Assembly (NCBI GenBank): GCA_951406725.2
Contig: OX597830.1
Location: 56,048,001-56,112,000, forward strand
Source of the DNA: Octopus vulgaris
Lineage: Eukaryota
Direction: 5' to 3'
Length of the DNA stretch: 64,000 nucleotides
Shown: one piece after another, positions 46,801 to 51,000 of the stretch
Layout of the letters: every line of letters begins with the position of its first letter
Position numbering within the stretch: the first letter of the stretch is position 1
The notes under the pieces: model-generated
Databases searched by the model: none
Told to the model about the DNA's origin: nothing
Seen by the model: the letters and a program-made list of their open reading frames with translations, nothing else
Position numbers and translations under genes: made by a program

Positions 46801-49800
46801 TGCTTTGCTCTTTTATTTTATAAATTTCAATGTTTTGGCCTTGCAAGGCCCAAATCATGATCAGAAGGAAAATGAAATGTCATTTTGACCTGCATAGATG
46901 GAGTTGTGGGAATGCTGTGACATACAAAGATATTGTAGTGTTATATTAAGAAAAGAAATAAGCATTTTGGTTACTACCAATCTCCATAGATCACAACAAT
47001 GTTCCACTTTCTGTTCATGATGAAGGCTATATTGGCCAAAATATTGAGGTAACAGTATTTTCACTCTTTTATTTCTAACTTGAATTTTCTGGCTTTCTCA
47101 TTTTAATTGTATTTTTCCATTTCTTTTTTTAATTTTTTTTTTTATTAATGTTTGTAATTGTTCTGTTATTTCTGATGTGTTTGATTTACAGGAGAAAGCA
47201 GCAGTAGCCCCAGCAGCAGCAATAGCCCCACCAGCAGCAGCAGTAGCCCCACCAGCAGAACCAGTTGCCACAGAGACTACAGTTCCTGAAAAAGAAGCTG
47301 TCAGTGAAGAAAAGCCACCTCAGACAACAGAAGTACCTCCTGATAGCAGTCCTTCTAGTGTTGCTACTCCCGCTCCTGCCTCTGCTCCCGCCCCTGCTCT
47401 GTTAGAGAATATTGCCCCTGAAGCTACTACTGTCAGTGGGGACAGTGAGGAGACGACAGCCACCAGTGAGAAGACACCTACTCCACCCCCTCCTTCATCA
47501 TCGCCAGCTCCTGCCCTTTCAGCTTCCTCCACCACTACTACTACTACAACCACTTCTACTACTGTTGATACTACTACTACTACTCCTACTACTACTCCTA
47601 CTACTACTACTACTCCTACTACTACTGCTGCTGCTACTGCTGCCATCACCACCACTACCCCAACCACTGCCACCACTGCTGTCACTTCTACCACTGCCAT
47701 CACTACCGCCACCACTACCACTACCGCCGCCGCCGCCACCACCACCACCACCACTACAGACACCCCTACCACTGCTCCTCCTGTTTCTGCTGCTTCTGAA
47801 GCTCCAGAAACCAAACCTGATAATCCAGCCACTTCAGGTAGGTTGTTAGTTACACACCCAAACTATTGAGAGTCTCTTTTTCTCTTTCTTTCTCTCAATC
47901 CAGCCACTACAGGTAGGTTGTTAGTCACACGGACCCTGCTGGGGAAGAAGGGCCTCTTTTTCTCATTCATTTCTGTGTTCCATTCTGATTTTTAAAAAGA
48001 CACCCTATCCATTAAAACTGTATTTTCTCTCTAAAATGCATGATCACCTTACCTTATATGTCTGATACAAGGTTAGATTTGAGATGATTTGACTGTGGGC
48101 AAAATGTTTGTCAGTGCTAAGTGTGGCTCTCCATTTTAAGGTAGTATAACAATCAAACCTACTACTTATTATTTTGTTGTTGTTGTTGTTCAACCATGGT
48201 TGAACTCTGACACAACCAAATAGTTGATTCTCTCTCTCTTTCTCTCTCTCTCTCTCCTTACAGAAATCATGCAATTGAAAATATCTTAATTGTTTCAAAA
48301 TAAAACAGTTTGTGTTTTTTGTTGTTTTAATTTATGATGAAATACCTTGTCTCCAGGTGTAACTCAAGTTTTTTCCCATTTTAATTAACATTGCAAGTTT
48401 ACTGTTTACTCAACTAACTTCCTTCCTTGAACTAAATACTATTTCATCATCAGTTCTTAACCAATACATACCTATGTTGTTTTTATACAACTAGGTTCAA
48501 CACTGCATGATCACTAGGGCCACACATTCAAATACACTTGCTCTCTCTCTCTCTCTCTCTCTCTCTCTCGCTCTCTCTCAAAATTAGCAGGCTGTGTACC
48601 ACTAGTGCACCACCTCTCTACCTCTCTTCTGCTCCTCCTTCCCTGCTATCACTGTCTCTCTCTCTCACTTGCAAACACTGTAGTAAACCCAGTATTTTCT
48701 CTCCAGATTTGTTTTTAACAAATATCCACCTTATACAAGTTCCTACTGATCATCAACAGCATTTCTCTCTCTCCAGTCTGTAAGAGTCTGTGAAGATTAT
48801 GGGTGCTGCCCTTTCTTCTTCAGCCAAACAGAACAATAAATAAAAGCCAACCTATTGAAGTCATTATTTCTATAATGTTTTATTAGTTTTAAGGAGCTGA
48901 TGTTGTTTTTGGTTTTGGTTTCTTGTACATTTGTCATGTCATGCACCTTTTTTTGGTTTTGTTCTTTTTGTTTTGCTGCTTTCAGATAACAATGACAAAG
49001 TACTTCACTTTATATTGATTTCTTTGTTTTTTCTCTCTCTTTCTTTCTCTCTGTCTCTCTCTTTCTCTCTCTCTCTATCTCTCTTCTATAATTCCCCCTT
49101 CCCCCCAGAAAATAAAAAAAAAAAGAAAAGGAAGAATGCTTCAAGAAATCACCATCAGACAGTTCCTCAATTCAACACCTTGTCAAATCTTTACTGTTCC
49201 TAAATTGTCGTTATTGTCTATAAGACAAGCTGAGCTTTCAGCCTTCTCTCATTCTTCATTCTCATTTCAGAGCTTGACAAAGTTAAGCAGCAGACTAATC
49301 TTTCAGTATTCACCATGAAACTGCAGAGAAGAAATTTTCGAGCCATGATGTTCCTGCATTACTCGAAAGGGAAAAGTGCAGCTGACAGTCATGAAATTTT
49401 GTATCGATTATTTCAGGATTTAAGTCCCTCTTACAGTACAGTTAAATTCTGGTTTGGAGAATTTAGACGTGGTAAAGAAGATCTGGAAGATGACCAAAGA
49501 ACTAGCCGCCCAAACACTTCAATACTCGCTGAAAATATTGAAGTTATAGAGGCAATGTTGAATAGTGATAAAAGATTGACACCTAAAGAAATAGAAGGTA
49601 CCTTAAGCATTGGATCAGGAAATGTCAAATGGATTCTACAGAATCATATGCATTTAAAACAGCATAGTTGCTGTTGGATTCCACAAACTCTTAATGAAAT
49701 GCAAAAGCAGGCTCGAGTGGAATGGTGTCATTATATGCTGAAAAAATTTGAAAATGGAGGTTCTCCTAAGGTCTGGGATATTGTTGTAGAAGACCAGATT

Positions 49801-51000: not shown

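Follow-up and report, generated by a model that had tools for sequence, protein, structure and literature searches.

A mariner transposase exon alternatively spliced to the SWI/SNF subunit gene SMARCE1 in Octopus vulgaris

The SMARCE1 (BAF57) gene of Octopus vulgaris carries the exon of a mariner transposase in its last intron, and we report that the resulting SMARCE1-mariner fusion is real at the level of both gene and RNA: the donor of exon 15 splices either to position 50864, giving the canonical protein of 794 amino acids, or to position 49271, giving a fusion of 1117 amino acids. Positions refer throughout to the window, which is the whole 64-kb stretch of genomic DNA that was analysed. 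A fusion by alternative 3' splicing had been proposed in an earlier note, made from the letters of this DNA, and both splice joints have now been found in public sequence records. We give a probability of roughly 0.55 to the reading that the fusion is translated, that its product replaces SMARCE1 in a share of SWI/SNF complexes and that its HTH tail provides those complexes with sequence-specific recruitment.

The host gene was identified by orthology and by its HMG box (Pfam HMG_box), which is followed by an NHRLI domain and a coiled coil; the Argonauta orthologue matches human SMARCE1 with an E-value of 1e-84. With the Argonauta model as the tblastn query, 15 coding exons were mapped on the forward strand from 10798 to 47837, with AG/GT ends and an open frame. 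Exons 1 to 3 lie at 10798-10849, 11378-11427 and 14691-14780, and the HMG box is encoded by exons 4 to 6 (21080-21154, 27764-27895 and 37666-37753), after which come exons 7 (38202-38242), 8 (39151-39249) and 9 (39423-39477). Exon 10 (41013-41185), which has one match in the genome and is single copy, encodes the NHRLI domain and the start of the coiled coil, and the latter extends through exons 11 (41303-41404) and 12 (43077-43433). Exons 13 (43813-43995) and 14 (44465-44569) lead to exon 15 (47192-47837), which encodes a Thr/Pro/Ala-rich low-complexity linker and ends in the phase-1 donor GTAGGT that is common to both isoforms. The canonical last coding exon (50864-51000) encodes an acidic tail of 45 amino acids. 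No other gene was found in the 64-kb window outside SMARCE1 by Pfam searches of 85 of the 95 listed open reading frames.

Two phase-1 acceptors in intron 15 are available to this donor, AG 49269-49270 and AG 50862-50863, and both are pyrimidine-rich (16 pyrimidines in 19 positions each). Seven strong acceptors were counted between 47838 and 50864, of which only the one at 49271 leads into a long open frame in phase 1 (367 codons); the remaining six give 5 to 71 codons, including 44 for the canonical end. The polypyrimidine tract and AG of the transposase exon (49245-49270) are followed, on the same strand, by a leader of 15 in-frame codons (49271-49314) and by the transposase ORF of 353 amino acids (49315-50376), the whole lying in a stop-to-stop open frame of 380 codons (49234-50376). 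The computed translations of exons 1-15 joined to 50864 (794 aa) or to 49271 (1117 aa, the transposase exon contributing 368 codons) contain no internal stops, and the fusion model keeps 749 of the 794 host residues, including the HMG, NHRLI and coiled-coil regions; in phase, frame and retained domains the locus is as the earlier note had read it. Neither AATAAA nor ATTAAA occurs between the transposase stop at 50376 and the canonical acceptor (50377-50863), the first such signal being ATTAAA at 51078, so that the canonical 3' end is probably used by the fusion mRNA as well, unless a non-canonical signal lies in that interval.

The intron has two smaller features. A second copy of the exon-15 donor region, 34 nt long and 94% identical (47897-47930), sits 75 nt downstream of the original, and a possible microexon of 14 nt (48986-48999), resembling a five-residue piece that precedes the transposase exon in Argonauta, would shift the frame and bring in a stop overlapping the transposase ATG. 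No joint using either feature was seen in the four runs described next.

The transcript evidence comes from public runs, of which 24 were listed; 19 of these, from six studies, contain the transposase exon, and none is recorded as RNA. Splice joints were read over 47755-51310 in four of the 24 runs, from four studies, which are presumed to be RNA. A contig of 1395 nt in run X14 (depth 18.4) skips 1433 nt with GT..AG ends, which is precisely the joint 47837 to 49271, with 78 nt on its short side, and continues through the whole ORF to the transposase stop. This one contig, from one run of the four and one study, is where the fusion joint was observed; it covers about 108 nt of exon 15, the linkage to exons 1-14 being provided by the gene models. 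The canonical joint, 47837 to 50864, is present in the three other runs (X1 at depth 124, X5 at 380 and X18 at 130), contig depths that give no isoform ratio or tissue claim, record filtering having dropped entries. Among the filtered contigs, X14 shows neither the canonical joint nor cover of the last exon, and X5 shows no cover of the transposase exon. Since a DNA search of the genome turned up the exon once only, spliced RNA is the best reading of the joined form.

The transposase exon also occurs, in X1 and X18, in contigs that extend without a splice from 49092 across the ORF, with further cover of intron 15 in X1; contigs over the exon were mapped only to 50376, beside skipped repeats, and an X1 contig that is unspliced across 50776-50888 reaches 25 nt past the acceptor, short of the 31-nt rule. 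Such contigs would suit a reading in which a stand-alone domesticated transposase of 353 amino acids, expressed from a promoter within exon 15 or the intron after it, or else from RNA in which that intron is retained, is the product under selection and the fusion joint a minor by-product. The ORF has an ATG of its own, RefSeq annotates its O. bimaculoides counterpart (XP_014783185.1, 99% identical) as a separate 353-aa gene, a paralogue on C4 has no host exons that we could find within 100 kb upstream and, according to the accessible text of PMC2268245, CSB-PGBD3 likewise yields a solitary transposase from a cryptic promoter. Against this, conservation at the protein level extends into the leader ahead of the ATG, both paralogues have the acceptor in frame, the observed joint is exact and lies in a contig that traverses the whole ORF, and the Argonauta model is a fusion; a stand-alone product as the selected one seems to us rather unlikely.

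The transposase itself is readily placed. Its ORF matches Pfam HTH_48 above the cut-off (E 1e-9) and Transposase_1 just below it, and can be aligned along its length to Mos1 (E 1.5e-32) and also to both SETMAR domains. Foldseek ranks Mos1 transpososomes first (E 1e-22) among the matches to an AlphaFold2 model (mean pLDDT 78.8, from an alignment of 11 rows), and the ORF consists of a bipartite HTH at about residues 5-111 followed by the catalytic fold. Aligned to Mos1, the mariner-type motifs are WIPQTL, the aspartates D160 (49792-49794), D255 (50077-50079) and D290 (50182-50184), whose D34D spacing is kept, and SSPDLSP. The bipartite HTH, the WVPHxL-like linker, the D,D34D arrangement, the YSPDLAP-like motif and the Mos1 fold assign the exon to the mariner (DD34D) lineage.

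The same fusion is predicted in Argonauta hians, where GAB1609329.1, an automatic model of 1243 amino acids that falls in one 90% cluster with the O. bimaculoides protein, reads as SMARCE1 and then the same transposase, with HMG, NHRLI and transposase in one ORF and five extra residues at the junction by comparison with the window model. No fused long form appeared among 3213 candidates when the transposase was the query, the Argonauta fusion being hidden there as a non-representative cluster member. At the level of protein identity, which is the measure used for the orthologous comparison, exons 1-12 agree at 400 of 438 positions and the transposase exon at 332 of 368 (ORF 321 of 353; leader 11 of 15), so that constraint on the transposase exon is about equal to that on the core of SMARCE1; the low-complexity linker of exons 13-15 agrees at 141 of 311. 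By domain the figures are 53 of 54 for HTH1, 52 of 58 for the linker and HTH2, and 199 of 218 for the catalytic domain. The Octopus-argonaut split is tens of millions of years old, and the orthologous fusion and its constraint, which the earlier note had suggested looking for, are best explained by capture of a mariner in the last SMARCE1 intron before these genera diverged, followed by domestication. Argonauts constitute a superfamily of their own within octopods, by the accessible text of 10.1101/2021.11.08.467834. A further cephalopod-like SMARCE1, P0177 (373 of 438 identical in exons 1-12), ends in the acidic tail, which, like the search of cluster representatives, is no proof of absence of the fusion in squid or cuttlefish.

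These identities weigh on the proposal that the alternative acceptor serves mainly to tune the dose of SMARCE1, or to remove its acidic tail, with the transposase a passenger. The intron does hold several weak alternative outcomes that would fit dose control (retention, the duplicated donor and the possible frameshifting microexon), but in a passenger 368 codons would not have stayed open, with 90% identity, next to linker exons at 45%, and we consider the proposal very unlikely.

A single paralogue, 48% identical, lies on the minus strand at G000:C4:103088854-103089894 (the exon extending to 103089932; L002:1498-2580). It has the same layout of pyrimidine tract, phase-1 AG and similar leader, and it resembles the window only over about 49265-50403. 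Across the two leaders the frame is kept, with third-position changes in shared codons and a 6-nt indel; a leader that is conserved and in frame, here as in Argonauta, is what would be expected if it is translated. Between the two exons dN is 0.41 and dS 1.79 (near saturation), giving a dN/dS of about 0.23, a ratio computed for this paralogue pair only. Of the three aspartates, two are gone from the paralogue; in a tree of 32 rows it is sister to the window and Argonauta copies with support of 100/99, a position that fits either one capture with a later duplication or the separate insertion of two copies of a single element, now extinct. No convincing host exons for it emerged from four scans reaching as far as 100 kb upstream, or from tblastn searches with SMARCE1 proteins; seven other stretches served for repeat masking alone. 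Three other features were recorded in passing: an intronless cyclin ORF of 298 codons (Cyclin_N and Cyclin_C; L025:2456-3349, minus strand), about 23 kb from the paralogue and probably a retrocopy; an exon of an RMI1 N-terminal OB-fold gene near C4:103.155 Mb (L029:4807-4926, plus strand); and a 328-codon Asn/Lys-rich ORF with no Pfam match (L026:6119-7102, minus strand).

The description of the transposase as intact, in the earlier note, holds for its reading frame and three aspartates and fails for the motifs around them. Conserved columns were defined as the 52 in which at least 85% of 27 free transposases agree; 42 of these are retained in the window and Argonauta copies (10 changed) and 34 in the C4 paralogue, whereas the free transposases, whose rows themselves defined the columns, keep 40-52 with a median of 49. 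The changes common to Octopus and Argonauta are G64S, K116Q, E161Q, F203Y, N256D, A257T and H260N. Since the active-site context is altered, transposition by the SMARCE1-linked copy is unlikely, though some residual nuclease activity may persist, and DNA binding may be weakened by G64S, in the RxGRP linker motif, together with the loss of K116.

It might be argued that the fusion is made and selected and that its tail acts through the catalytic fold, by residual nuclease activity, DNA-end binding in repair, dimerisation or protein contacts, and not as an address. The three aspartates with D34D spacing in both genera, the high identity of the catalytic domain and the conservation of the altered motifs themselves between Octopus and Argonauta accord with a catalytic role. 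They have to be set against E161Q, N256D, A257T, H260N and T158V/I, all of which alter the conserved columns, against the constraint on the C4 paralogue despite its two lost aspartates, and against the fact that HTH1 is the most conserved part of the protein; we think a role of this kind decidedly unlikely.

Copy number and termini distinguish the exon from a mobile element. Among the best 115 scored of 36,635 candidates in the genome, the locus itself matches at 100%, the C4 paralogue at 48% and the rest at 27-32%, and a DNA search with the transposase exon matches only an AAAC repeat elsewhere, in agreement with a single copy. No complex inverted repeat of at least 11 nt was found between the flanks of the ORF, nor did these flanks match the TIR of the genome's multicopy mariner family. 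That family (27-32% identical) has clear TIRs in four of eight loci inspected and falls in another clade than the domesticated exon; it is young (L003-L020), with TIRs of about 39 nt and many open ORFs of 350 codons, about 29% identical to the exon. The earlier note had supposed that the tail would target dispersed TIR or MITE copies, a supposition that finds no backing in these searches: no cognate TIR family was found, the abundant one being that distant relative.

The lineage of the exon has few other representatives. Its members among the scored genomic matches are the two domesticated copies only, and a genome search with a free relative produced no third among 118 scored of 54,691. A metagenome scan for progenitor TIRs gave only relatives at 25-37% (80 loci kept of 494, the best 37% locally), and an Atlas search gave generic mariner clusters only. 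Among cluster representatives there was no relative above 50% identity outside the O. bimaculoides/Argonauta cluster, and none between 50% and 99%. The view that the exon is a recent insertion or one still able to move, or was acquired by horizontal transfer, and lies in frame by chance could call upon the many intact mariner ORFs of the genome and a phase match expected once in three; the single copy at protein and DNA level, the lack of TIRs, the degenerate motifs, the same position in Argonauta and the empty range from 50% to 99% largely refute it, and we regard it as extremely improbable. TIRs, near-identical copies and an intact active-site context, the marks of an active element, are missing at the locus, and on these sequence comparisons the exon is a domesticated one. 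The observations that the earlier note had named as counting against a fusion (no joint, many TIR-bearing copies, absence or decay in relatives) were in no case made.

Two acceptors compete for the exon-15 donor, and in the preferred reading the choice between them would set the amount of BAF that bears the tail. The fusion mRNA, probably running on through the canonical last exon to the same 3' end, would be translated into 1117 amino acids; its NHRLI/coiled-coil part, the BAF anchor of SMARCE1, would dock the protein in BAF, where it would substitute for canonical SMARCE1 in a share of the complexes. A flexible linker of about 310 amino acids would end in the bipartite HTH and a transposition-dead catalytic fold, and this tail, probably binding DNA as a dimer by analogy with mariner transposases, would recognise a specific DNA motif and lend that share of BAF an address of its own. 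According to the accessible text of PMC9170682, the NHRLI/coiled-coil part is all of BAF57 that is resolved when BAF is examined by cryo-EM; according to that of PMC6862534, human BAF57 is highly disordered and variable at its ends.

Comparable captures are known. CSB-PGBD3, a primate fusion of ERCC6 with piggyBac (PMC2268245 and PMC3459987, in the text available), was invoked by the earlier note as an exon-trap layout, and the octopus locus resembles it in having an intronic transposase ORF, an in-frame acceptor just upstream of the ATG, and alternative splicing to host and fusion mRNAs of a chromatin-remodelling gene. The likeness does not extend further: CSB-PGBD3 derives from piggyBac and drops the ATPase, whereas the octopus fusion derives from mariner, lies in the last intron of a gene for a structural BAF subunit, retains nearly the whole host protein and has no TIR/TSD, no poly(A) hexamer after the transposase stop and no MER85-like MITE family that we could find. 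According to the available part of PMC3459987, binding of CSB-PGBD3 to its cognate elements did not explain the genes it regulates. That capture by alternative splicing yields sequence-specific regulators is set out in PMC2268245 and 10.1101/2020.05.07.082677, as far as their accessible text goes.

SETMAR (Metnase, the anthropoid SET-Hsmar1 fusion) likewise has a whole mariner transposase, of the same fold, as the C-terminal exon of a chromatin protein, and in both the transposase was probably retained for DNA binding. In SETMAR, however, the host supplies an enzyme domain and the mariner is of another lineage, while the octopus host is a scaffold subunit of a remodeller, the fusion is of independent origin and the canonical isoform persists; the SETMAR catalytic triad is reported as lost in the accessible text of PMC13548663, and the octopus copy keeps its three aspartates. 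Tetrapod fusions such as KRABINER arose by the same capture of a transposase DNA-binding domain by alternative splicing (10.1101/2020.05.07.082677); in the available version that tetrapod survey is dominated by KRAB repressors, with 'swi' occurring 0 times in its main text, whereas the present case is molluscan and would tether a whole ATP-dependent remodeller. Caenorhabditis F-box genes, also invertebrate hosts, captured the Tc1/mariner HTH alone, in a multicopy family (PMC12062965, accessible text), as against a full transposase on a single-copy housekeeping gene here.

Full-text searches found no paper describing a SMARCE1-mariner fusion, which agrees with the earlier note's knowing of none; most matches were judged by title and the start of the abstract, and the scope was that of journals open without subscription. 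The term 'smarce1' occurs 0 times in the main text and five supplements of PMC10027918, and 'octopus' and 'smarce' 0 times in the accessible text of 10.1101/2021.11.30.470311 and PMC12062965, a scope that ends short of their fusion-listing supplements. The locus has what defines a host-transposase fusion gene, namely a spliced in-frame joint (one contig), an orthologous position and purifying selection (dN/dS from the paralogue pair). What appears to be new is the capture of a mariner by a SWI/SNF scaffold subunit in a mollusc.

The C-terminus of SMARCE1 has evidently tolerated a DNA-binding module in other proteins too. Among 119 long SMARCE1 relatives, searched only at 683-2176 aa, the best four non-cephalopod matches (P0178-P0181, a set that includes XP_033732966.1 and in which P0180 clusters with Tegillarca granosa proteins) have C-terminal C2H2 fingers; flatworm and insect matches have none listed. 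No C2H2 pair was found at the octopus locus, in the window and 40 kb downstream. The best genomic match to the pair, at G000:C17:21.2 Mb and 35 Mb away, closely resembles the pair in three of the four proteins and is in what we take to be a ZEB/zfh gene. A literature search found nothing on SMARCE1 with a C-terminal C2H2 pair. We put forward, tentatively and expecting that it may well fail, the broader idea that the lophotrochozoan SMARCE1 C-terminus is a swappable DNA-targeting slot, filled by a C2H2 pair in bivalves and by the spliced transposase HTH in octopods, where a regulated switch would send an octopod-specific BAF to ancient sites derived from mariner ends without a separate transcription factor; the C4 copy would then serve another host gene. 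If so, a dimerising tail could even pair two BAF complexes or loop DNA.

Public records at present split the gene or leave it unnamed, as a stand-alone 'SETMAR-like' protein in O. bimaculoides and under the label 'hypothetical protein' in Argonauta. Transcription factors and chromatin readers that are separate proteins normally bring SWI/SNF to DNA, and a DNA-binding tail of transposon origin, spliced onto a core subunit, would build an address into the remodeller itself, in one lineage only. The fusion extends transposase capture from the KRAB and SET fusions of tetrapods to a remodeller scaffold in a mollusc, and the locus offers a concrete case in which a connection of transposons with the regulatory novelty of octopods can be tested.
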